Part shown: one piece after another, positions 15,759 to 34,322 of the stretch
How the letters are laid out: every line of letters starts with the position of its first letter
Position numbering within the stretch: position 1 is the first letter of the stretch
Source: Aureivirga marina
Lineage (GTDB): Bacteria; Bacteroidota; Bacteroidia; Flavobacteriales; Flavobacteriaceae
Length of the DNA stretch: 64,000 bases
Direction of reading: 5' to 3'
NCBI RefSeq assembly: GCF_015767265.1
Contig: NZ_JADPIB010000007.1
Coordinates: forward strand, 8,307-72,306
Made by a program: the position numbers and the translations under genes
Notes under the pieces: model-generated
What the model saw: the letters and a program-made list of their open reading frames with translations, nothing else
Database searches by the model: none
What the model was told of the DNA's origin: nothing

Positions 15759-16217
15759 ATGGTAGATAATTTAGAGCAAGGATATTTTGGTATTGGAATT
15801 TATAATGGAAAAACTCCTGAAAACTTAGGTGTTCTTTGGCGTTCTGCTCAAAATATGGGTGCAAGTTTTATTTTTACAATCGGAAATAGATATGCAAAAC
15901 AAGCTTGTGATACACATAAAGCTGTAGGAGCAATGCCTTATTTTCATTATAAAGATTTTGACGATTTTTATGCACATCTTCCAAAAAGTGCAATGTTGGT
16001 TGGAGTAGAATTAGATGAAAAAGCAGTTCCTTTAGAAACTTTTGAACATCCACGTCGTTGTGTCTATCTTTTAGGAGCTGAAGATCATGGATTATCAAGA
16101 AAAGCAATTGAAAAATCGCATCATTTGATTAAATTCGATACACGTTTAAGTCTAAATGTTGCTGTCGCTGGAAGTATTGTGATGTATGATCGAAATATGA
16201 AAAAGAAGTTTAAATAA
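15759..16217 (+). CDS. SpoU/TrmH-family RNA 2'-O-methyltransferase (TrmL-size, SPOUT fold)
   Basis: 152 aa with GIGIYNGKTPENLGVLWRSAQNMGA and LLGAEDHGL, both characteristic of SPOUT methyltransferases. Confidence 0.7.
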   Translation: MVDNLEQGYFGIGIYNGKTPENLGVLWRSAQNMGASFIFTIGNRYAKQACDTHKAVGAMPYFHYKDFDDFYAHLPKSAMLVGVELDEKAVPLETFEHPRRCVYLLGAEDHGLSRKAIEKSHHLIKFDTRLSLNVAVAGSIVMYDRNMKKKFK

Positions 16218-16302
16218 TTTAAAAGATTACAAAATTTATTTTTTTTAAACTTTCGATTTAATTTTTGTATGTGAAAGTTTAAAAGAGTTTATAATAAAAA
16301 GA

Positions 16303-16353
16303 TAAATAAGATATTTTTGCAGAATTTTTAATTTTATAAAATATCTTATTTAT
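16303..16353. repeat. Perfect 16-bp inverted repeat with a 19-bp spacer, in the spacer after the SpoU gene
   Basis: ATAAATAAGATATTTT ... AAAATATCTTATTTAT. It could be an AT-rich terminator hairpin or an operator. Confidence 0.45.
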
Positions 16354-16560
16354 ATTTACAGACCTTAATGTATGAAAGAGATAAAAAATTAACAATTTAT
16401 TTAAAAGCTAGCTTAAATTAATTGTTTTTTAAAAACAGCTGTAATTATTATTTCAAAGTTGAAAAACTCAAAATCCACTTTAAAGAAAAAGAGAGAACGT
16501 TTTATACTTTGATGTTTTAATAAAAGTATATTAAATTGATGAAAAAATAAAAAAAATCTT

Positions 16561-16800
16561 TTGAGTTTAGTTGCTATTGCAACTATAACTACTGCATTAT
16601 TTGCAACAGAGATTAATTTAAAAAATAGTTCAGAATCTAATATTGAGACCGAGCCTGAATGTGTTGAAACTTGTTCTACATGGGATGGTGATATTCGTAT
16701 AGAAACATCTGCAGGAAATTGGTTTATGTCTTGTGAAAAAGCTAAACAAAGATGTTATGAAAAATTAGAAAGATTGACATCTGCACCTATTTCTGTATAA
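16561..16800 (+). CDS. Small Cys-containing secreted peptide (79 aa, TTG start). Hypothetical.
   Basis: GC is higher than in the flanking spacer. The N-terminus LSLVAIATITTALFA is hydrophobic, there are 4 Cys (CVETC ... C ... C), and a strong terminator follows immediately. No in-frame ATG is available. Confidence 0.4.
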   Translation: MSLVAIATITTALFATEINLKNSSESNIETEPECVETCSTWDGDIRIETSAGNWFMSCEKAKQRCYEKLERLTSAPISV

Positions 16801-16813
16801 CATAAGATAAATA

Positions 16814-16846
16814 AAACTGTATTGATTTTCAATACAGTTTTTTATT
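16814..16846 (+). terminator. Strong rho-independent terminator after the small peptide gene
   Basis: Perfect 12-bp stem AAACTGTATTGA/TCAATACAGTTT with a 3-nt loop, followed by TTTTTTATTG. Confidence 0.7.
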
Positions 16847-16884
16847 GTATTCTGAAAAAAATAATTAAAAATAAATTACATGTT

Positions 16885-17676
16885 ATGAAAAAACTAACCT
16901 TCTTATTCCTTTTTTTAGGAGTATTTATGAATGCACAAAATATTGAAATAACTTATTCAGTAGAAGAAAATTGTGATGAAGGGATTATGTCTACAAAAAT
17001 GGATTATGTATTAAAAATGACAGCAGAGAAATCGGTATTCTATAATTTAGATACAACTCATACTCAGTTTAAATATTCTGATTTTGTTGACGAAATTAAA
17101 CCTTATGGAGATTATGAAAGAGCTAAACTATCAGATAATCATTATAAACCAATTAAAAAAGATTTCTTTTATAAGAGTTTTATAGAGGATGTTATAGTTT
17201 TCAGAAAACAAGAAAGAGGTAGGTTTTTGATAATAAAAGAGAATTTAACTTCTCTGTTCAATTGGAATATTGATTCAAAAGAAACAAAAGAAATTATGGG
17301 TTTTACTTGTCAGAAAGCAACAGCAGAATTTAGAGGAAGAAAATATGAAGCTTATTTTACAAGTGAACTTGGAAATTATGGAGGTCCATGGAAATTTGAT
17401 GGATTACCTGGTGTTATTTTAGCAGTGAAAAGTGTAGATGATTATTTTGTATTACAAGCAAAAGAAATAAAAAAGAATAGAGTAGATTTTAAAATAGATA
17501 GTCGAAATATGGAAAATATAGAAACTATTTCTTGGGAAGAATTTGTAAGTATGAAAGAAGAATATTTGAAGAAAATGTTTAAAAAATTAAAATCTCTTTC
17601 TGCACCAGGAGAGACTGGAAAAATACAATTAAAAGATCAGTTAGAAGATTTAGGAATTAAAACAATGAGTTTTTAG
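16885..17676 (+). CDS. GLPGLI family protein (Bacteroidota-specific, unknown function)
   Basis: DGLPGVILAV matches the family's namesake motif, and the signal peptide is MKKLTFLFLFLGVFMNAQ. The ORF-track start at 16822 is rejected because it overlaps the terminator at 16814..16846. Confidence 0.7.
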   Translation: MKKLTFLFLFLGVFMNAQNIEITYSVEENCDEGIMSTKMDYVLKMTAEKSVFYNLDTTHTQFKYSDFVDEIKPYGDYERAKLSDNHYKPIKKDFFYKSFIEDVIVFRKQERGRFLIIKENLTSLFNWNIDSKETKEIMGFTCQKATAEFRGRKYEAYFTSELGNYGGPWKFDGLPGVILAVKSVDDYFVLQAKEIKKNRVDFKIDSRNMENIETISWEEFVSMKEEYLKKMFKKLKSLSAPGETGKIQLKDQLEDLGIKTMSF

Positions 17677-17677
17677 A

Positions 17678-20275
17678 ATGCTTAAAAAAATTGCAATTCT
17701 CTTTCTGTGTTTTTATTCTTCTTCTATGTTAGGGCAAAAAATAGAGGGAATTGTAAAAGATACAGAAGGAATTGATATTCCGTTTGCTACTGTATCGATT
17801 AAAACAGATTTAGATACAAAAAAAATTTCCGAATATGTTTTTGCAAGAAAAGGAAAGTTTTCGTTTCAATTAAAAAAAGAATATTCTAAAATTATTATAG
17901 AAGTAAAAGCAAATAAATATATTTTGGCTTATGAAATACTTGATAATTTAGAAAAAGATAAAACTTATTCTTTTGATTTTTACCTACAAAAAGAAGAAGT
18001 TAATGAATTAGAGGAAATAACTATAAAAGCAAACAAACGTTTTTTTGAAGAAAAGGGAGATACAGCTGTTTTTGATGCTAGCAAATATGTAAAAGAAGGT
18101 GATAAGAAGGTACAGGATTTACTGAAAAATATTCCTGGAATTGATGTTAATGAAAAAACTGGACGTATCAAATATAAAGGAAAATCTATTGAAACGATTA
18201 TGCTAGATGGAGATGACCTTTTCGGAAGTAATTATACGTTAGGTTCTAAAAATATAAATATAGGAATAGTTGAAAAAATAGAAGCAATTGAAAATTATTC
18301 TGAAAACCATCTTTTAAAAGGAATAGAACATAGTGAAAAAGTAGCTATCAATTTAAAATTGAAAGAAGGAAAAATAGATTTGTCAGGAAGTGCAGATTTT
18401 GGTGGAGGTATTGATGCTGATGGTAAAATTTTAAAAAATGTTTATGCGACGGTATTAGGAATTGCTAAAAAACATAAATCTTTTGGAGTTTTATCATATA
18501 ATAATATGGGAATTAATCATTCTCCATTTGATTTTTCTAGTTCTAACTTTAATATAGAAGCTAGCAAAGAAAATGAATTATATGCACCAAAATTACTTTC
18601 AGATAGAATTTTGGTTGATGATCGTTCCAATAATAATGATATGTATTTTGGAAATATAAGTAGCTTGTGGAAATTGAATTCTAAATGGAATATAAAATTA
18701 AATCTTTATTACATAAAAGATAAAATTAGAGCAAATAGTTTCTCTAAAATGGAAAATCAAATTGAAGAAACTTATTTTGTTACTTCAGATGCTGTTTCTG
18801 AGATTAACAAACCAACTTTATATCGAAGTGATTTAGAAATGAAATATCATACATCTAGTTCTTCATTGTTAGAATATAAAGGTAAAATATTTCAGAAAAA
18901 TAGAGATGCTTTACGTACTATTGTTACTAATTCTAGTACAAATTATCATAGTAATATTAATACAGAAGAAATCTTTTTTAAGCAAAATTTAATTTATACT
19001 CAAAAATTATCAAATAGTTCTGTTTTACAATTTATAGCAAATTATAGTAAAGACAATGCTCCACAAGAAATGAAGTTAGAAGAGATTAATTTATTTGAAT
19101 CTTATCTTAATCAAAAAAGTAATTTCGAAAAAGAAGTAGTTTCTATTGATATGAAATTATTTGGAAAAATAAATAAAACAAAATATTCTTTAAATGTGGG
19201 TTATAAAAACCTAGAATTACCTTTTATTTCTTCTAATAACGAATTTGATTATAATAATGATTTATATTTTCAGAAAATCATTTATCAAAATGGGTTTATA
19301 AAATATAGCTATAAATCATGGTCTTTTATTCCTTCGTATAAATTGAATATTTTACAACAAAAACTAAATGATTCTGTAGAAAATAATTGGATTTTAAATC
19401 CAAGTTTAACTATTCAATATCATTTTACAAAAAATTCAAAATTAATTGGGAATATAAATGAAAATAAAAGACCTATTTCAGAAGATTATATTTATAGAAA
19501 TTCTGTAATAACTAATAATCGAAACGAAATTCGTAATACTCCAAGTTTAAAATTGCAAAGAAATAGAAGTGCAAGTTTAGGATATATGTATTATAATCTT
19601 TTAAAAAATATTAAATTTAATTCAAGATTATCCTATAGAGAATCTAAAGGAAATTTCTTTTCTAGATATGAAATTACACCAACAGAGACTTGGATTCAAA
19701 ATTTCTTTTTAGGTGAAAATACAGAAGAATTTGGAATAAATCTTTTTGGTGAAAAATTATTTTATGATATTAGTTTAGTTATTAGTCTGAATTCCAATTA
19801 TACCAAATCTAATTATAAGAATATTGTAAATAATTCTGATTTGAGATTAAATATTTCTGATACATTTCAAAATACTGTAAAAATAAGTTCAGCTTATGAT
19901 TTTCCTATTAATTTTGAAACTGAATTTTCACATAATTATTCAAAAACTAAAACAGAAAATGGCGATAGGATTATTAATGAAAGATTTGAAAATAGTACCA
20001 ATTTAAAAATTAAAATATCAGAAACAATTTCATCTAATTTTATTACAACATATTTGTTGCCAAATTTAAATGATACATCACATGATTATATATTCTCTGA
20101 TTTTAATTTGAACTATAGACCTAAAAAAAGCAAGCTAGAATTAGGTGTTTATTTGAAAAATATTTTAAATGAAGATAAGTTTAGACAAATTACTGTAAAC
20201 GATTATTCAAAGTCTTCCTATGAATTAGATTTGCTACCAAGACGTTTTATAATAGGTTTGAGTTATACTTTTTAA
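17678..20275 (+). CDS. TonB-dependent-receptor-like outer-membrane beta-barrel with an N-terminal CarbopepD_reg-like domain
   Basis: Signal peptide, QKIEGIVKDTEGIDIPFATVSIK, a plug-like region (DLLKNIPGIDVNEKTGRIKYKGK) and a Tyr/Asn-rich barrel ending in GLSYTF. Confidence 0.7.
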   Translation: MLKKIAILFLCFYSSSMLGQKIEGIVKDTEGIDIPFATVSIKTDLDTKKISEYVFARKGKFSFQLKKEYSKIIIEVKANKYILAYEILDNLEKDKTYSFDFYLQKEEVNELEEITIKANKRFFEEKGDTAVFDASKYVKEGDKKVQDLLKNIPGIDVNEKTGRIKYKGKSIETIMLDGDDLFGSNYTLGSKNINIGIVEKIEAIENYSENHLLKGIEHSEKVAINLKLKEGKIDLSGSADFGGGIDADGKILKNVYATVLGIAKKHKSFGVLSYNNMGINHSPFDFSSSNFNIEASKENELYAPKLLSDRILVDDRSNNNDMYFGNISSLWKLNSKWNIKLNLYYIKDKIRANSFSKMENQIEETYFVTSDAVSEINKPTLYRSDLEMKYHTSSSSLLEYKGKIFQKNRDALRTIVTNSSTNYHSNINTEEIFFKQNLIYTQKLSNSSVLQFIANYSKDNAPQEMKLEEINLFESYLNQKSNFEKEVVSIDMKLFGKINKTKYSLNVGYKNLELPFISSNNEFDYNNDLYFQKIIYQNGFIKYSYKSWSFIPSYKLNILQQKLNDSVENNWILNPSLTIQYHFTKNSKLIGNINENKRPISEDYIYRNSVITNNRNEIRNTPSLKLQRNRSASLGYMYYNLLKNIKFNSRLSYRESKGNFFSRYEITPTETWIQNFFLGENTEEFGINLFGEKLFYDISLVISLNSNYTKSNYKNIVNNSDLRLNISDTFQNTVKISSAYDFPINFETEFSHNYSKTKTENGDRIINERFENSTNLKIKISETISSNFITTYLLPNLNDTSHDYIFSDFNLNYRPKKSKLELGVYLKNILNEDKFRQITVNDYSKSSYELDLLPRRFIIGLSYTF

Positions 20276-25666: not shown

Positions 25667-25687
25667 GAATAAATTAATTTATAAATG

Positions 25688-25724
25688 AAAAGTCCTTTAA
25701 GTAAAACTTAAAGGACTTTTTTAT
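25688..25724. terminator. Bidirectional terminator between convergent lspA and the giant ATPase gene
   Basis: Perfect 13-bp stem AAAGTCCTTTAAG/CTTAAAGGACTTT with an A-run on one side and a T-run on the other. Confidence 0.7.
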
Positions 25725-25726
25725 TT

Positions 25727-28700
25727 TTAATTCAAAGAAATTCTATCCACTTGAGCCATTTTCTGTAAACTTTCTGAAATTGCTTCCATTTGTTCTAAAA
25801 TTTGTCCCATTTGATTTCCTCCAACTAAGTTTAATTTTTGTTTTTTCAAGAAAGTTTCTTTGATGGAATTCCATCTATCTTTTTCTTCTTCAGATAAAAG
25901 TCCAATCATTTCTCTAAATTTCAAAATGTTCGCTTCTGCTCCTGAAGTTAAAGTCTGAGATTCTCTCTCATAATGCGAAATAATTAATGTTTTAAGTTCT
26001 TTATCGTTCATTACAGGAACAATTTTCTCTGCCATTTTATTCATATCACGATACGAACCTTGCAATTTAAACATTGGCTCTGTTCTATATTCTTCCGAAA
26101 TTCCTGCTGATTGAATATAAGCTTGATTTACTTTTAAAACCACATCTCGAACTTCAATTAACTTTTTGAATACAGAAATATATTCTTTGATTTCTATTGC
26201 CGAATGATTTGCTTCAAACTCTACATTTTCTCTCTGATTTGTTTCTGCAATTTTTAAAATGGTCAGAATATCTTTTTGACTTTTATTCGCCAATTTTGAA
26301 AGCGTTGGATTCGAAGTAATACTATTTTCTATATAAGACAATTCAAATTCATAAGCCGAATCTCCAAGAATATCTCCAAGATTATAAATATCTGCACGGT
26401 TTGCAAGCATGTCTGGAATCTGGAATTTCTCTCCACTTTCTGTATATGGATTTCCTGCCATTATCACACAAACTTTCTTTCCTCGGAAATCATAGGTTTT
26501 AGGTTTTCCTTTATAAACTCCTTCAATTTTACGCTGTCCATCACAAAGCGAAATAAACTTTTGTAAAAACTCTGGATTACAATGCTGAATGTCGTCTAAA
26601 TAAATCATTACATTGTCCCCCATTTCAAAAGCCAAATTCAACTTTTCTAATTCTTGTTTTGCTCCAGCATTTGTTGCTTCAGACGGATCTACAGAAGTAA
26701 TATCATGTCCTAAAGCAGGCCCGTTTATTTTCATAAAAATCAAACCAAGTCTGTTTGCAACATATTCCATCAACGTTGTTTTTCCATATCCTGGAGGAGA
26801 AATTAATAATAAAAGTCCCATCAAATCGGTTCTTTTATTTTCTCCAGCAGTTCCGATTTGTTTCGCTAAGTTCGCTCCAATAATTTGCAGATAAACTTTA
26901 TCAATCAATTGATTTCTCACAAAAGAAGAAAGAACTCTCGGCTTAAACTCTCCAAGTCGCATCGTTTCTGAAGTTTCTTCTAATAATTCGTGTTTTAAAG
27001 AAGTAAATTTCTCATACGTTGGAACTACAGTTTCACTATATTTTTCCAATTTATTCTGGAAATCATGAATGTTTAATTGGTATTTTCCATCTTCAATAAT
27101 TTCATGTGTTCCAGTCAAATTTTCTAAAGTTTCTTCTGTAATTACTTTATGCACATTTTTCTTCACATCCGATTGTAAAATGATTAATAAAGCTGCTTCT
27201 TCTACATTTTTGATATATGAACTTTTCGAATTTTGCATAAACGCTTTTAACCAAGTCTGAATTGTCTGAAAACGAATGCTCATATCTTCGATTTCTTCCA
27301 TCGATTTTTCAAAAGCATTTTTCATCTTTTTTCCTCGTAATTCAATATCAAAAGAATGTACTAAATCCGCAGCGTTTGCATCAATCACAAAGTTTTCATT
27401 AAATGCTAATTCATCAAAAAGATAATCACAAGCTTGTTCTACAGAAGTATTCCAAGTGATGTTTTCAGATTCAAAGCAAATTTCTAAACGATTTTGCATT
27501 TGGTTTTTTATTGCTTCAAATTCTTTTGTATTTGGAAAAACTTTTAATAAAATTCCTGCTGCTTTTAGTTGTTGTTCTAAAATTTTCTTTGCTTCTTCCT
27601 TTTCCCAAATTTCCCAATAAAATCTAGCAAAAGCACGAGTTGTTGCATCATGTTTTAGCATTCCAACATGTGAATACATTTGAATTAAATTGTGTAAAAT
27701 CAACAAAGTATCTTGATCATGAACTCCTTTCACATAACCTTCAGAATATTTGGAAGCACTGAATTTTTGGATAACTTTCAATAAATCTTTCGAATCTAAA
27801 GTTGAAATATCATCCCAAGTGATAATTGCTTTTGTAGTATTATCAATTAATTCTTTTCTCTTTACAGCTTCTAAAATCTGATAAGCCAAATATTCCGAAC
27901 GATATACATTTCTATTTTCTGAAGGTAAAATCTGATTCCAAACTGGCCGATATTCATTAAAAGTTTTATCTACAACTTCTTCAAAATAATCAGTTCCTGT
28001 CAAATGATAATACATTTTATCATTTTTGAACACCATAGTTAAATCTAAATTCTGTGTGTTTACAGAGAATTTATAATTTCCAAACTGAATAATGTTTTTC
28101 CCATCAACAAAAAGTTCTGACTTATCTTTTAGCTGACGAATTGCTTCTTCTTTTAAAGATTTCAGCTTACTTTGAATATCATCAGCTTTTACAGAATCTC
28201 CAATATTTTCAAGTTCTTCAATCGTTTTTCGGATTTTCTCCACCATCAAATCGGAAGCAATATATCCGTTGATTTCCGAAACTTCTTTAAATCGAGATAA
28301 TCTACTTTTTACAGATTTTAAAATTCTTTCTGCAGTTTGTTGTAAAGTCGTTGCTCTTTTATTTCTAGCTTCTACTAAAGCAACTTTTTTCGATTCAAAA
28401 GCGTTGTATAATTCTTCTCTTTTTAAAGATATTTTTTCAACAAAAGAATCAAATTCAGAAAATTTCCCTTCCAATTCTTCTAGTTGTACCATCAATTTTG
28501 TAAGATATTCCTCACATTTTTCTGGTGTATCACATAAATCGATGTAGTTTACAACTCCTTGATCAACTAATTTGATTTGCGCATTAAATTCTGCTTTTCC
28601 TTCTTCTCCTAATAAACTTTTACGTTTTCTTTTTAAACTCGCTTTTATTTGGTTGAAAGAAGCATAAATCTCCGAAATATTATCAATAATTCTCGTTGTT

Positions 28701-30640
28701 TCTGTCGCATCTTCAATTTGCAGATTAGAAACAATTTCGATTAACATTTCTAATTCCGCAGCATTTTCTGTGATTTTTTCTTCTAAAGCATTTGCTTCAA
28801 CAACTTTCTTGATTTGCTCAATTTCTGCTGTTAATTCCGAAACTTTTTGCTGATATGGAGCTAAAGCTTCTTTTTTCAATAAGAATTGCACACAAGATTT
28901 AGAAGTTTCTTCCGTGAATTGCCCTAAAATTTCATCATAGTTTTCAACAGCTTCAATATCTACATAACGCAATTCTTTCAAAGAAATCACTTCTCCACGA
29001 ACTTTTCGAAGATTTGTCAATGACTGTACAAAATCATTAATATGATGTGGAATTTCTCTTTTGATTACACGAATTAACTCATCTGCTTCTGCTGTAACTT
29101 TTTCATATTCATTTTTAGTATTTTGCTGAATCTGACGAACTTTTTCATATTCTTCCACAGCTGCTGAAGCCGTTTCTTTTATAGCATGAAGCGGAACTGT
29201 AAGTTCAAAAGTTTCTTTTTTGTTTAACCAATGATACGTATCTAAAACATCTGTACTATATTTTATAATGTCTAAATATAAATCGTTGTAAACTTCTTCT
29301 TTATCTGTCAAAGTCATCAGCGAATGACATTCCGCCATCGCACGAACGATATCTTTATTTCCGATTTTGTATAAAAACGAATCTTTATTTCCATCAATTT
29401 GAAAATCTGCTCCAATAAAAGGTGTTTGCCAAATCTGAATTGCATGGTGTTTTTTCGCTTCTTCTTCTGCTTTAAACAAACACATTTCTCCATTATCAAA
29501 TAAAGAAAAACCATGACAAACAATCGGATTTTCTACTCTTTGCTCAATCAAATTATAAGGCAAAAGTAAATAAACTCCTTTGCTTTGATTGTAAAACACA
29601 TACAAGAAATCCTCTCCATTTGGCGAAGTAATACATCTTTCAAAAAGCATGTGTTCCAAATCTTGCTCAAAACGTTTGTATTCTCCAGATTGTAAATAAT
29701 AACCATCCGAGAAAAGTAAACCTTGACTTTCTGGAAGTAAAATACAAGCTTCTTCCATCGAATCTACACGTTTTACTTCTTGTAATTTGCTGTTATAAAC
29801 AAAATAACGAAACGCTTCTTGGTAAGGTTTAATTCTAAAAATCACTAAATGATCAATGATTGCATATTCTACTTCTGCATCATCCAATCGTTGTTCCTGA
29901 TGTTTTACAGGTTCATTGTAAATTCCTTTTCCATCCTTTGTATTGTCTTCTACTTTGATGGTTAAATCCCCACCAACTGTTTCTACAAAAACAATATCTT
30001 CTATCGAAATATGTGGATGTTCTCCCTCGCAAAAGTTCTCACGAGTCGTTTGTTTCCAACGAAATTCATGTTGATGTGGAAAACGAAATTCATGTTCACT
30101 TCGATTATCTACATATTGTAATGTTTCTTCTTTTATCAGCCATTTAAACGTTTTGATATCTTCCTCACGAGTTCCAAAACGGAAAACCATATGAAGATAC
30201 TGACCAATTTTTGCAAACTTTACAAACTGTGTATCTCTGTAATATTTATATAAATTCTGAAAATCTCTATGGAAATTTTCGTCGTCTAAAATTTCTAGAG
30301 TAGCTTGATGAAATTCATGATCTCGGAAACAATAAAAACTAAAAACATCTTCTAGTTTTATTTCCGTTTTCAAGCCCATGTGAATATTGTAACCAAAAAG
30401 AAAATGATTTCCCAAAGAAAACATATCCCAAGGCACACAATTATAATTTGTCGTTACTCTTTCTGTGGCTTGAAGTTGAAAATCAATCGCTCCAAAAACA
30501 TCTTTTCTAGCAACATTTAATTGATTTAATCTTTCTCTTAAATCTACATTGTCTTTACGCAATCTTTGCTTCAGAATCTCATACGTTCCTCCGTCTAATT
30601 GCATTTCTGTATTTTCTATATTTTCTTTTTGATCGTTCAT
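25727..30640 (-). CDS. Giant 1637-aa multidomain protein with one AAA_5 (dynein/midasin/MoxR-type) ATPase module and extensive coiled coils. Third gene of the NfeD-flotillin operon.
   Basis: Walker A ISPPGYGKTT. Walker B and AAA_5 box IYLDDIQHCNPEFLQKFISL. Sensor and Arg region VCVIMAGNPYTESGEKFQIPDMLANRADIYNL. The ATPase lies at about aa 1150-1350. The N-terminal roughly 450 aa form a Cys/His/Trp-rich domain, and aa 450-800 are E/K-rich coiled coil. Confidence 0.85.
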   Translation of the reverse strand: MNDQKENIENTEMQLDGGTYEILKQRLRKDNVDLRERLNQLNVARKDVFGAIDFQLQATERVTTNYNCVPWDMFSLGNHFLFGYNIHMGLKTEIKLEDVFSFYCFRDHEFHQATLEILDDENFHRDFQNLYKYYRDTQFVKFAKIGQYLHMVFRFGTREEDIKTFKWLIKEETLQYVDNRSEHEFRFPHQHEFRWKQTTRENFCEGEHPHISIEDIVFVETVGGDLTIKVEDNTKDGKGIYNEPVKHQEQRLDDAEVEYAIIDHLVIFRIKPYQEAFRYFVYNSKLQEVKRVDSMEEACILLPESQGLLFSDGYYLQSGEYKRFEQDLEHMLFERCITSPNGEDFLYVFYNQSKGVYLLLPYNLIEQRVENPIVCHGFSLFDNGEMCLFKAEEEAKKHHAIQIWQTPFIGADFQIDGNKDSFLYKIGNKDIVRAMAECHSLMTLTDKEEVYNDLYLDIIKYSTDVLDTYHWLNKKETFELTVPLHAIKETASAAVEEYEKVRQIQQNTKNEYEKVTAEADELIRVIKREIPHHINDFVQSLTNLRKVRGEVISLKELRYVDIEAVENYDEILGQFTEETSKSCVQFLLKKEALAPYQQKVSELTAEIEQIKKVVEANALEEKITENAAELEMLIEIVSNLQIEDATETTRIIDNISEIYASFNQIKASLKRKRKSLLGEEGKAEFNAQIKLVDQGVVNYIDLCDTPEKCEEYLTKLMVQLEELEGKFSEFDSFVEKISLKREELYNAFESKKVALVEARNKRATTLQQTAERILKSVKSRLSRFKEVSEINGYIASDLMVEKIRKTIEELENIGDSVKADDIQSKLKSLKEEAIRQLKDKSELFVDGKNIIQFGNYKFSVNTQNLDLTMVFKNDKMYYHLTGTDYFEEVVDKTFNEYRPVWNQILPSENRNVYRSEYLAYQILEAVKRKELIDNTTKAIITWDDISTLDSKDLLKVIQKFSASKYSEGYVKGVHDQDTLLILHNLIQMYSHVGMLKHDATTRAFARFYWEIWEKEEAKKILEQQLKAAGILLKVFPNTKEFEAIKNQMQNRLEICFESENITWNTSVEQACDYLFDELAFNENFVIDANAADLVHSFDIELRGKKMKNAFEKSMEEIEDMSIRFQTIQTWLKAFMQNSKSSYIKNVEEAALLIILQSDVKKNVHKVITEETLENLTGTHEIIEDGKYQLNIHDFQNKLEKYSETVVPTYEKFTSLKHELLEETSETMRLGEFKPRVLSSFVRNQLIDKVYLQIIGANLAKQIGTAGENKRTDLMGLLLLISPPGYGKTTLMEYVANRLGLIFMKINGPALGHDITSVDPSEATNAGAKQELEKLNLAFEMGDNVMIYLDDIQHCNPEFLQKFISLCDGQRKIEGVYKGKPKTYDFRGKKVCVIMAGNPYTESGEKFQIPDMLANRADIYNLGDILGDSAYEFELSYIENSITSNPTLSKLANKSQKDILTILKIAETNQRENVEFEANHSAIEIKEYISVFKKLIEVRDVVLKVNQAYIQSAGISEEYRTEPMFKLQGSYRDMNKMAEKIVPVMNDKELKTLIISHYERESQTLTSGAEANILKFREMIGLLSEEEKDRWNSIKETFLKKQKLNLVGGNQMGQILEQMEAISESLQKMAQVDRISLN

Positions 30641-30663
30641 TTTTTTTGGTTTAAGTTTACGTT

Positions 30664-30679
30664 TCTCTTTTTAAAGAGA
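30664..30679. promoter_or_regulatory. Perfect palindrome TCTCTTTTTAAAGAGA about 25-40 bp upstream of the giant gene's start codon. Candidate operator.
   Basis: 7-bp arms with a 2-bp centre, lying in the 258-bp intra-operon spacer. Confidence 0.3.
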
Positions 30680-30850
30680 TAAAAAAAGGGTGTGATTATT
30701 TTCTTTAAAATCAATTAATCTTATTTTTTAAAATGGAATAATTAATGAAATATGGACATTGATTTGAAAATATACACACCCTAGACTTTCCTTTTTCTAA
30801 TAGAATTTTTACCCTTTTAACTATTCTATTTTCTTTTAATCAAGAACATT

Positions 30851-30873
30851 TCATGGTGAAATGTTCCTGATAT
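30851..30873. promoter_or_regulatory. Perfect 10-bp inverted repeat GAACATTTCA-TGG-TGAAATGTTC, just 3' of the flotillin gene
   Basis: A hairpin without a strong U-tract. It could be an attenuator or processing site, or a regulator-binding site between the flotillin and ATPase genes. Confidence 0.35.
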
Positions 30874-30898
30874 TGTTTTTAAAACCCAAACAAATATT

Positions 30899-33103
30899 TT
30901 AGTTCAATCCGATGCTTGCTGGAGTTTTATCTGAAACACCTAACATTTTAGAAACCGATTGTAATTGGTTTAACACAGAAAGAGAATCTTCATCTTGTGT
31001 TTGTTGCATTAATTTGTAAAGTAATGCAGAAATTGTTAAGTTTTTCAAATCTTCAGAGTTTACTCCAAACTGATCGATAAACATTTTAAAATTTTCTTTA
31101 AAACCATTTCCATTTTCACCATTGAAGAAAGTTCCTTTTACTTCTTGTAATACTTCACTATTTCCAACAGCTTTGTCAATTGCTTTTCCAGTTGTTATTG
31201 CACTAGTCAATTTATCAAAGAACATAGATTCTCCACCGATAATGTCAATATTAGACGATTGTAGCGCCTCTGCTAATACACCAGCTTGTGAAGCAGCAAT
31301 ATCTTTGTTTGCATCAATTCTAGCCAATTCAATTTCTTTAGCTTGCTCTAAGCGTAAACGGAACTCTTCATGAGCAACGCTTGTAGGATCTAATATCTTC
31401 ATTGCATCTGCTTTCTTACGAATTCCTTCCGCTTCCACTTCCAGTTTCTCGTTTAAGATGCGAACATCAACCAATCCTTGTTTTTCATTAGCTTCCGCTT
31501 GAACTTGAATAACTTCAGCTTGAGCTAATCCTTTTTCTCTTTCTATTTGTGCAGCAACTTCCCCAATCTTTTTGTCCGCTTCCGCTTGAGCAATACCTTT
31601 AACTTCAATTCCTTTTGCTTCTGCATGTGCTGTAGCTTCAACAGCAGCAGCTTCTGCAGCAGCCTCTTTTTCGCGAGCTTCCGCTTTTGCTTCCATAACT
31701 TGTGCTTCCGACATTCCGATTGCAGCAGCTTCGGCAGCAGCAGCTTCCGCTAATATTTTAGTAGCTTCTGCATCATGAATTGCAGCAGTTTCTTTACTCT
31801 TCGCATCAATTAACATTTTCTCAGCATGTAATTTCGAAGCTTCTTTTGCAGCATCTGCTTCTTTGATTTTCTTCACTAATGCTGATTCTGCTTCTTGTTC
31901 TGCGTTTTTCAGTGCAACTACTTTATCTCTTTCCGCTTTTGCTAGTGCTTGTGTATCTTTAATTTTTTCTTGTTCTTCTACAACCGCTTTTTCTACAGAA
32001 ACTCTTTCACGAATTACATCTTGAATATTTTTCTGTTCGATTTCGATTGCTCTTTGTTTTTCAATTTGAGCTAACTCAACAATTCTTGTTTTTTCAGTTT
32101 CTTCTAAAAGTCTTGCTTGCTCTACACGTTCCGCTTCAATTGCTTCGATTTTTTCTTTATTTTTCTCTGCAACAATTACTTCACGCATTCTATTTTCTTC
32201 TGCAATTTGAATTTGCTCTTCTGTAGCAATTCTTGCTTTTTCAGCTTTTAAGCGCTCTTCTTCATTAATTCTATCAACTTCAGATTGCTCTCTAGCTTTA
32301 ATATTTTCGATTTCACGTTTTTGACGCTCTTCTGCTTCAACTTTTTGTTTTTCTAAGTTTAAGATTGTCTCTTGCGCTTCAACATCTTGTTGTTTGATTG
32401 TTTTTTCTTTATCTCTTTCAACTAAATTAGATTGTACTTTTTGTTCCGCAGTTAATTCAATAATTTTCTTGATACCTTCTGCATCTAAAATGTTACTTTC
32501 ATCTAATTCATTAATTGGAGTTTGTTCTAAAAAGTCAATCGCACAATCTTCTAATTTGTATCCATTTAAATCTGTACCAATAATATTTACAATTGCTTGG
32601 TTAAATTCTCTACGTGAAGTATATAATTCTACAAATTCAAATTGCTTACCAACTGTTTTTAATGCTTCTGCAAATTTTGGTTCGTATAATCCTCTTAACG
32701 TTTCTGGATCTGATGCTCTATCACAACCAATAGATTTAGCAACTTCTGCAACTTTATCAACATTCACACGAACGAAAAATGTTACTTTAATATCTGCTCT
32801 CATATTGTCTTTACAAATCAGACCTTCAGAACCAGTTCTTGAAATTGTAATCGTTTTTACACGAATATCCATTTTTTCAAGTCTATGTAATACCGGAATT
32901 GATATTAAACCAGATGAAGATACTTTTGGTTTTTTATCTACACCACCAAAACCTCCAGTTCTAACTAAAACTTCTCCCTGAGCAGCTTTGTTGTACATTT
33001 TAATAATAATGACTAAAAATACAATGATTGCAAAGGCTATAAGCCCAAGAGTAAAATACCCTGCATAAGCTCCTGTTCCTAATTCTTGTACTGTTTCTTC
33101 CAT
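30899..33103 (-). CDS. Flotillin / SPFH (band-7) family protein of the YqiK type, with a greatly expanded Glu/Ala/Lys coiled-coil region
   Basis: N-terminal TM helix, then an SPFH domain (VLVRTGGFGG...ISIPVLHRLEKMDIRVKTITI) and flotillin-type EA-repeat coiled coils. 734 aa, compared with about 550 aa for E. coli YqiK. Confidence 0.85.
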   Translation of the reverse strand: MEETVQELGTGAYAGYFTLGLIAFAIIVFLVIIIKMYNKAAQGEVLVRTGGFGGVDKKPKVSSSGLISIPVLHRLEKMDIRVKTITISRTGSEGLICKDNMRADIKVTFFVRVNVDKVAEVAKSIGCDRASDPETLRGLYEPKFAEALKTVGKQFEFVELYTSRREFNQAIVNIIGTDLNGYKLEDCAIDFLEQTPINELDESNILDAEGIKKIIELTAEQKVQSNLVERDKEKTIKQQDVEAQETILNLEKQKVEAEERQKREIENIKAREQSEVDRINEEERLKAEKARIATEEQIQIAEENRMREVIVAEKNKEKIEAIEAERVEQARLLEETEKTRIVELAQIEKQRAIEIEQKNIQDVIRERVSVEKAVVEEQEKIKDTQALAKAERDKVVALKNAEQEAESALVKKIKEADAAKEASKLHAEKMLIDAKSKETAAIHDAEATKILAEAAAAEAAAIGMSEAQVMEAKAEAREKEAAAEAAAVEATAHAEAKGIEVKGIAQAEADKKIGEVAAQIEREKGLAQAEVIQVQAEANEKQGLVDVRILNEKLEVEAEGIRKKADAMKILDPTSVAHEEFRLRLEQAKEIELARIDANKDIAASQAGVLAEALQSSNIDIIGGESMFFDKLTSAITTGKAIDKAVGNSEVLQEVKGTFFNGENGNGFKENFKMFIDQFGVNSEDLKNLTISALLYKLMQQTQDEDSLSVLNQLQSVSKMLGVSDKTPASIGLN

Positions 33104-33255
33104 AATTTAATTTTTGTTTTTAGATTAATTTATATTTACTATTTGTTTGTTTTCTTGATTAAAATTTGAATAAAATTTTCCTTTCCAGTTTGTTGTTTCC
33201 CTCCATTTTCAGAAGGGAAAAACTGGTTAATTCAAATATGTATAAAGTGTTGTTT

Positions 33256-33900
33256 TTAGATTTTTGCAACTAAGTAGTAATCTTCTTCTTCGTAATGTTC
33301 TACAATTACAACTTCGTCTCCTCTGTAAATTTTTCTTCCTTCAATAGATTTGATATTTAGACGAACTTTATCTCCACCAAATTCTAAATCAGCTTGACTT
33401 AATTTTTCATTTTCTGTGTCGTAAAGAACTGTACACATTTTGCCAACAAAATTAGTATCGATTGTTCCGTCTAATCCATCCCAAACTTTTACGAAAGGAA
33501 TACATGCATATTTTGCAAAAAGCAAGGATACAAATGTTATAGGAATTAAAAGTAGAAATCCTATTAAGAAAGAGTTATTTCCAATGATATGATTGATATA
33601 AATTGAAAGCCCCCACATTGGAATAGCAACAAAAAATAGGTAGATCATGATTGGAAGTTTTCCAATATTAAAAAAACTAAGGAACCCTGAAATTCCACCT
33701 CCAGTAGAAATATCAGCATCAGCATCTATGTCAGCATCTAAATCTACATCCATATCAACATCTGTATCTATATCAAAATCAATAGAATCGAATTCTACCA
33801 ATCCAATTATGGCGATTAAACCATAAATGATTAAAAATATTAGCAAAGCTGTCGGGATGATGTTTGCTCCTGTAATTGCTATTTTTAATAACTCTAACAT
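33256..33900 (-). CDS. NfeD-like / YqiJ-family membrane protein with a C-terminal OB-fold. Partner of flotillin and first gene of the operon.
   Basis: TM helices, an acidic DIDTDVDMDVDLDADIDADAD tract, and a C-terminal beta-rich domain (KMCTVLYDTENEKLSQADLEFGGDKVRLNIKSIEG) consistent with an NfeD OB-fold. Confidence 0.65.
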   Translation of the reverse strand: MLELLKIAITGANIIPTALLIFLIIYGLIAIIGLVEFDSIDFDIDTDVDMDVDLDADIDADADISTGGGISGFLSFFNIGKLPIMIYLFFVAIPMWGLSIYINHIIGNNSFLIGFLLLIPITFVSLLFAKYACIPFVKVWDGLDGTIDTNFVGKMCTVLYDTENEKLSQADLEFGGDKVRLNIKSIEGRKIYRGDEVVIVEHYEEEDYYLVAKI

Positions 33901-34271
33901 TTTGTGATTAATTTAAGTTTACGTTTACGATTTATAGATTATAAAAAATTGATTAAAAAGTAATTTATTTTAATTATTAACTACTGTTTTAATGTTTTTG
34001 ATAAAAATATGTTAAAAAAATAGAATTTTCAAGAGGTTCTATTATTATTATGAAAATCCAAAAAACAGCTAATAAAAATTTCATTAATGGTATTTTAAAG
34101 CTATTTAAATTAGCATCAAATTAAATTAACTATAAAAAATAGCATTAATTTTGGCTAAAAAAATTAGATTTTAAAAGATGAAATGTAACAAAAAAAGCCT
34201 TGAAACGTCGTATTTGGTTATGGTAGCTAAAAAAAATAGCAATTTTTAAAAATATTTATTAGCAATTAGCA

Positions 34272-34298
34272 TAAAAAAAGCAGCTCAAAAAGCTGCTC
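34272..34298 (-). terminator. Rho-independent terminator of truB (minus strand)
   Basis: AGCAGCT and AGCTGCT form a stem. The A-run on the + strand gives a U-tract on the minus strand. Confidence 0.6.
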
Positions 34299-34322
34299 AT
34301 AATTTATATAATGTTGTACAAT

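Follow-up and report, generated by a model that had tools for sequence, protein, structure and literature searches.

Bacterial flotillins are widespread, their mechanism is debated, and the YqiK/FloT class has no established enzymatic partner. NfeD-like proteins of the YuaF/YqiJ type share operons with SPFH2 flotillins (PMC2636767), and a larger arrangement has been described by Ravi et al. (mSystems 2024, PMC11237479; bioRxiv 2020), in which a CesT/Tir-PspA dyad is encoded together with a YqiJ/YuaF-type protein with three transmembrane segments, a flotillin, and an AAA+ ATPase. Some proteobacterial versions of this operon also contain a PLD hydrolase (PMC11237479). The same study recognized more widely distributed "related abbreviated operons," which retain only the flotillin, the YqiJ/YuaF protein, and sometimes the AAA+ ATPase, and which might cooperate with PspA encoded elsewhere; one tabulated example is from Dokdonia donghaensis (ANH61663.1), a member of the Flavobacteriaceae. 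A more distant parallel is HflK/C-FtsH, in which an SPFH cage works with an AAA+ enzyme (PMC12048511). Here, we analyze a three-gene locus in the genome of Aureivirga marina, also of the Flavobacteriaceae, that encodes a YqiJ-like membrane protein, a long flotillin, and a giant ATPase. The stretch of DNA analyzed (the window) comprises 64,000 nucleotides (nt), or 64 kb, of contig NZ_JADPIB010000007.1, and the giant product of 1637 amino acids (aa) matches an NCBI protein of the same species (P0001) at 100% identity.

The locus consists of three co-directional open reading frames (ORFs) on the minus strand, with intervening spacers of 152 and 258 nt. The coordinates proposed for them in the original prediction (33900..33256, 33103..30899, and 30640..25727, in the direction of transcription) are exact.

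33256..33900, minus strand: yqiJ-like gene, 214 aa, identified by Pfam YqiJ_N, BLASTP against Escherichia coli YqiJ, and hydropathy
30899..33103, minus strand: YqiK-type flotillin gene, 734 aa, identified by Band_7 on an N-terminal fragment and by BLAST to YqiK
25727..30640, minus strand: giant ATPase gene, 1637 aa, carrying the NCBI name "DNA repair ATPase"

All three protein architectures, their order, and their strand match the operon of Ravi et al. The window differs from the full form of that operon in having no CesT/Tir-PspA dyad, no regulator combining helix-turn-helix (HTH) and Peptidase_S24 domains (HTH-S24), and no PLD protein. Because these genes are missing from the window and truB and uppP are found upstream instead, the Aureivirga locus fits the published abbreviated three-gene form. 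The gene association itself has therefore already been described by comparative genomics and is not a discovery of this analysis. The earlier statement that flotillins have no established link to a giant ATPase is outdated, given both the published operon (PMC11237479) and the SPFH-AAA+ precedent of HflK/C-FtsH (PMC12048511). With moderate confidence, we regard the locus as an abbreviated form of a conserved membrane module, made up of a YqiJ/YuaF-type protein, a long flotillin, and a MoxR-like ATPase of 1600-1900 aa, with a role in envelope maintenance.

One line of evidence for this reading is the conservation of the gene neighborhood. The giant ATPase belongs to a large family, with more than 4980 matches in a database clustered at 90%; its N-terminal 720 aa fall into 953 clusters at 50% identity, and full-length members span 1550-1930 aa and extend down to 27% identity. 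The gene was matched at least 569 times among 185,579 species, and proteins from different phyla share 50-60% identity over 1600 aa. We scanned one genome for each species and obtained 80 loci, distributed over Bacteroidota, Planctomycetota, Desulfobacterota, Verrucomicrobiota, and Calditrichota, and we treated as informative those with at least 1 kb of DNA upstream. A flotillin gene lies immediately upstream of the giant gene, on the same strand, in 67 of 74 informative genome loci, with a median gap of 272 nt between the aligned segments. With tblastn, we detected the YqiJ-like gene ahead of the flotillin in 58 of 61 loci; the other three have divergent YqiJ-like ORFs. The loci recovered in a second scan, which covered metagenome contigs and started from distant representatives, share 28-47% identity with a representative whose own identity to the query is 27%; the flotillin-giant arrangement was kept in 66 of 68 informative loci. 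In both scans, nearly every flotillin in this arrangement has a YqiJ-like gene before it. The original prediction had named homologs that usually occur without a neighboring flotillin as the outcome that would speak against it, and the opposite was found: adjacency is kept in 133 of 142 informative loci (~94%). The same gene order and strand thus recur in five or more phyla, even where identity of the ATPase is as low as ~28%, which supports a conserved and, as judged from gene context, functionally linked unit of the three genes.

In some loci, other genes interrupt the flotillin-giant pair; these are mutually unrelated (lipoproteins, an ABC transporter, and a transposase-like gene). A search of the related loci for a fourth conserved gene on the downstream side of the giant gene found none. 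Five loci (L003, L009, L014, L064, and L067) have a co-directional block of up to four genes downstream of the giant gene (~182, 242, 290, and 520 aa), the first two of which are present in all five and the last two in four of the five. As a separate observation, an additional short SPFH-only paralog (189-197 aa) follows the yqiJ-like gene and precedes the long flotillin in two loci (L024:6240-6809 and L063:2451-3044).

To count extended forms of the module, we used the 59 genome loci in which 1.5 kb or more of sequence precedes the yqiJ-like gene. In this region we detected PspA_IM30 (3.9e-41) in 24 of 59 loci, CesT_Tir_1 (4.2e-54) in 22, a divergent HTH_3 plus Peptidase_S24 regulator in 22, and a PLD-family protein in 7. 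PspA is encoded just upstream in about 40% of genome loci and about a quarter of metagenome loci, most of which also have CesT/Tir. The metagenome loci again contain PspA, CesT, and HTH-S24 genes, and in these the PLD gene often directly follows the giant gene. Because PspA lies just upstream in many loci, mostly accompanied by CesT/Tir, a role in envelope stress, one of the functions put forward in the original prediction, is plausible.

At ~30% G+C, the giant ORF of 1637 codons is not a chance occurrence. From N to C terminus, its product comprises an N-terminal helix, a beta-propeller-like domain, spectrin-like helical bundles, a small beta domain, a helical domain, a MoxR-like AAA+ module, and a helical C terminus, and hydropathy analysis revealed no transmembrane segment. 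Three regions correspond to Pfam families:

29231..30544, minus strand: DUF3686 domain, aa 33-470, Pfam 6e-186
28616..28870, minus strand: DUF7902, aa 591-675, within the helical-bundle arm (aa 420-850)
26435..26812, minus strand: core of the AAA+ module, aa 1277-1402, the single AAA/AAA_5 match (Pfam)

We modeled the protein with AlphaFold2 (AF2) in two parts, aa 1-720 and aa 840-1637, using 37 sequences for each (predicted local distance difference test scores [pLDDT] of 83.4 and 82.4, respectively). In the N-terminal model, a helix (aa 17-49) precedes about 28 beta strands located between aa 55 and aa 405, and helical bundles start at aa 420. In a Foldseek search of the PDB, almost all matches to this part were beta-propellers, including WD40, EML, LGI1-EPTP, CyRPA, and prolyl oligopeptidase structures, with E values of 2e-5 to 1e-3. 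The model of the DUF3686 domain is therefore consistent with a divergent seven-bladed beta-propeller. The description of the N-terminal domain as Cys/His/Trp-rich in the original prediction was overstated: histidine accounts for 4.0% of residues, cysteine for 1.7%, and tryptophan for 1.0%, and the composition is mainly aromatic.

The claim of a single dynein/MoxR-type AAA_5 module is supported. Its proposed position (aa 1150-1350) was about 100-130 residues too N-terminal, with the whole module spanning approximately aa 1264-1440. The AAA_5 profile matches above threshold and the nearest structures are of the MoxR type (CbbQ and NorQ), which supports placement of the module in the MoxR/dynein structural neighborhood. 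MoxR-type ATPases remodel folded clients rather than threading them. The Walker A motif (SPPGYGKTT, K1287), the sensor-1 residue N1397, and R1415, a candidate arginine finger, are invariant in the aligned family. The Walker B motif (IYLDDIQH, D1349-D1350; aa 1345-1353, ~26582..26608, minus strand) has D-D rather than D-E, and this feature is invariant in every aligned member, including those at 27% identity.

The flotillin has a transmembrane segment at aa 16-34, an SPFH/Band_7 domain at aa 41-185, an Ala/Glu-rich coiled coil at approximately aa 230-560, and a C-terminal flotillin-type region. Its identity to E. coli YqiK is 31% across a 450-aa alignment (E 2e-45). Searches of Pfam and the PDB with the whole-length protein returned no match; we attribute this to compositional bias and filtering, because the isolated N-terminal 239 aa match Band_7 at 2.4e-15. 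The Pfam Flot domain is matched weakly (E 0.092). As originally proposed, the protein is ~180 aa longer than E. coli YqiK (734 versus 553 aa), and the flotillins found in the triad arrangement are uniformly long, at 670-751 aa in 58 genome loci and about 600-750 aa across all loci examined.

Identification of the YqiJ-like protein draws on several lines of evidence. The Pfam YqiJ_N match is marginal (23.2 bits versus a cutoff of 23). The BLASTP alignment to E. coli YqiJ covers 195 residues at 24% identity (E 9e-8) and includes the C-terminal part, and hydropathy analysis indicates three hydrophobic or transmembrane segments (aa 17-35, 84-102, and 111-129). These are followed at approximately aa 150-212 by a putative C-terminal OB-like region of the NfeD/YuaF type. 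A profile of 30 YqiJ-like homologs gave a single PDB match, the OB domain of YuaF (2K14), which is weak (E 0.15), and the alignment to E. coli YqiJ spans the putative OB-like region. The first transmembrane segment is followed by an acidic (D-x)n linker (aa 38-65; 33706..33789, minus strand), in which aspartate alternates with hydrophobic residues (DSIDFDIDTDVDMDVDLDADIDADADI). Its character is kept in 30 of 30 aligned homologs, with variable length, and is far weaker in E. coli YqiJ. The linker may be a cation-binding or membrane-surface element.

The spacers between the genes have structure of their own:

33104..33255, minus strand: yqiJ-like/flotillin spacer, 152 nt, with a stable hairpin (fold -22 kcal/mol, z -3.1) and no terminator-like site
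30641..30898, minus strand: flotillin/giant spacer, 258 nt, with a minimum free energy of -59.3 kcal/mol (z -5.45; 0 of 200 shuffles equally stable)

The flotillin/giant spacer contains a 15-base-pair (bp) hairpin that begins ~27 nt past the flotillin stop codon and a long stem (GGGUGUG...CACACCC) that is followed by U7 ~45 nt ahead of the giant ATG. Structure in this position is recurrent: counterpart spacers from 30 loci in several phyla have a median z of -3.3, and 80% fall below -2, as compared with 13% of coding controls (L001, L011, L017, L040, L051, and L076 are examples). We considered canonical intrinsic terminators as an explanation and rejected it, as a hairpin with a T-run is present in just 4 of 35 spacers, and a terminator scan inside the three-gene unit found no canonical terminator. 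The recurrent structured spacer may be an attenuator or mRNA-stabilizing element that tunes the ratio of scaffold to enzyme. A 15-mer, AAACGTAAACTTAAA, is present in two exact copies, at 33912..33926 (minus strand), 11 nt before the yqiJ-like ATG, and at 30650..30664 (minus strand), 9 nt before the giant ATG, and 0 of 100 shuffles produced as many matches. We rejected the idea that this element is a conserved regulatory motif; in 58 other loci the longest common word is at most 10 nt, and the motif is specific to this genome.

The unit is bounded by two further features:

33901..34322, minus strand: upstream spacer, 422 nt, with the truB terminator at 34298..34278 (minus strand) at its start and the promoter of the module presumed to lie inside
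25687..25721: hairpin of 16 bp between the convergent lspA (plus strand) and giant (minus strand) genes, 5 nt past the giant stop codon

The upstream spacer, originally put at about 420 bp, is real. The downstream hairpin is likewise present, and its description as a bidirectional terminator holds in part, with a T-run recognized by the terminator scan on the plus strand alone. On the 3' side, the neighbors are a convergent ileS, a dksA/traR-type gene, and lspA; on the 5' side, and on the same strand as the module, are truB, uppP (BacA), a DUF3098 gene, ftsX, and a glyoxalase gene. These flanking genes indicate that the setting is chromosomal and housekeeping in nature, and there is no sign among them of a mobile element or defense island. 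The G+C content of the window is ~29-33%. Its minimum is in 16001..20000, at 0.23-0.25 versus about 0.29 elsewhere. No tRNAs were found in a scan of the window, and no Rfam family matched the locus or the window.

How might the three products act together? We envision that the flotillin oligomerizes at the inner membrane, on its cytoplasmic side, to form an SPFH ring or cage, onto which the YqiJ-like protein would dock via its putative OB domain. The propeller and helical arm could recruit the giant protein to this flotillin/YqiJ platform, where it would act as an ATP-using, chaperone-like remodeler in the assembly, disassembly, or loading of polymers or complexes bound to the membrane. Candidate clients are the flotillin itself or PspA, whether the gene for PspA is close by or at another site. 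The predicted outcome would be maintenance of the membrane or envelope under stress, comparable to the maturation of clients by MoxR proteins or the action of FtsH within HflK/C, and the structured spacer might lower expression of the ATPase relative to the scaffold. A more specific proposal, which we offer tentatively and consider possible but on the unlikely side, is that the giant protein is a dedicated assembly or disassembly factor for flotillin cages, PspA (ESCRT-III-like) polymers, or both. It would then be a functional analog, in the MoxR clade, of Vps4, with its arm and propeller reading the state of the SPFH scaffold.

Several observations weigh against an envelope-maintenance module with a remodeling ATPase. 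Approximately 6% of loci have the giant gene and no flotillin within 10 kb (L029, L035, L068, L110, and L134). PspA, CesT, and PLD are absent from the 64-kb window by tblastn, and an HTH-S24 query was likewise null. A VWA partner neither adjoins the giant gene in the window nor is conserved beside it in related loci. The invariant D-D of the Walker B motif suggests, at the level of sequence, that hydrolysis may be slow or switch-like. The predicted beta-propeller depends on Foldseek matches with low TM scores (~0.3). The spacer ahead of the giant gene may end transcription, and a single transcript of the three genes is putative. Finally, literature searches with DUF3686 and PF12458 returned no papers, and no experimental work on the giant-ATPase family was found.

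The most durable of the alternatives is membrane-protein quality control without a dedicated protease. The flotillin cage would corral clients for the AAA+ protein, which would pull them out or unfold them and pass them to other proteases, by analogy with HflK/C-FtsH and prohibitin/m-AAA. The partnership between SPFH and AAA+ proteins has precedent (PMC12048511), and the association with a CesT/Tir chaperone-like protein would fit. However, the nearest structures to the ATPase module are those of CbbQ and NorQ, which are MoxR-type proteins, and the giant protein has neither a transmembrane anchor nor a protease domain. We judge this explanation unlikely.

A function in anti-phage defense or abortive infection, also entertained in the original prediction, appears to us slightly more doubtful. 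Here, the flotillin and YqiJ-like protein would sense a perturbation of the membrane, the giant ATPase would be sensor or effector, and PLD would be the effector in some versions. The patchy, accessory distribution of the family (the 953 clusters and at least 569 matches noted above), the PLD-family gene and LexA-like HTH-S24 regulator of some loci, and a large multi-domain ATPase loosely like defense NTPases would all suit such a function. Searches with PADLOC (DB 2.0), using whole proteins and sub-domains, gave only P-loop-level matches of 14-18 bits (mad8, TRIP13, and IetA), none of them above P-loop noise. Moreover, the locus lies amid ileS/dksA-like/lspA and truB/uppP/ftsX rather than in a defense island or mobile element, and identities of 50-60% over 1600 aa between phyla are unlike those of fast-evolving defense genes. 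The three-gene core has no recognizable toxic effector domain, and our literature search found no link between flotillins and phage defense.

It is highly improbable that the giant protein functions as a DNA repair ATPase, in keeping with its annotation, and adjoins an unrelated yqiJK-type pair by chance: inherited names alone (Pfam DUF3686, "ATPase involved in DNA repair," and NCBI "DNA repair ATPase") and sub-threshold RuvB_N/RuvB matches confined to the P-loop speak for it, whereas a Pfam scan found no DNA-binding, nuclease, or SMC/Rad50 domain (a match to SMC/Rad50 being an outcome the original prediction had considered), RuvB equivalogs score 18-22 bits against cutoffs of 282-299, no repair genes are conserved in the neighborhood, and flotillin adjacency across phyla at the frequency reported above is beyond chance. 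The name has been propagated to thousands of proteins (P0001-P0120; Pfam PF12458), and it is probably misleading, as neither domain content nor gene context supports it. Quality control, defense, and DNA repair are each weaker explanations than remodeling of a membrane scaffold by the giant ATPase.

If the Vps4-like proposal is correct, the module would be the first for which the enzymatic partner of a bacterial flotillin is defined and the mechanism can be tested, and one in which a recurrent structured spacer sets the ratio of scaffold to enzyme. The triad connects a flotillin with a MoxR-like ATPase of very large size and, in numerous genomes, with PspA, and could provide a handle on the assembly or recycling of SPFH scaffolds and of ESCRT-III-like polymers for membrane repair. 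In relation to the operon of Ravi et al., the published account is computational only, does not classify the clade of the AAA+ protein, and does not mention the structured spacer. Our analysis adds quantified synteny, placement of the ATPase in the MoxR/dynein neighborhood, the recurrence of the structured spacer, and doubt about the name "DNA repair ATPase."

E. coli yqiJK and Bacillus subtilis yuaFGI contain a homologous pair, with a gene for a small membrane OB protein followed by that for a flotillin. In E. coli K-12, by contrast, yqiK is followed by sibD/ibsD and hldE, and there is no giant ATPase; the Aureivirga flotillin also exceeds YqiK in length, as described above. MoxR proteins such as CbbQ, NorQ, and RavA, to which the AAA_5 modules of midasin and dynein are related, are ~250-500 aa and usually have a VWA-domain partner, whereas the Aureivirga protein has a single module near the C terminus of 1637 aa, behind a propeller and ~800 aa of helical bundles, and a D-D Walker B motif. 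With HflK/C-FtsH, prohibitin/m-AAA, and SLP2/YME1L, the module shares the pairing of an SPFH scaffold and an AAA+ ATPase at the inner membrane, a likeness that is an analogy of mechanism and not membership. FtsH is a membrane-anchored M41 protease of the classical AAA clade, whereas the giant ATPase is predicted to be soluble and MoxR-like, and its SPFH partner, in contrast to HflK/C, is a cytoplasm-facing flotillin accompanied by an NfeD-like protein.

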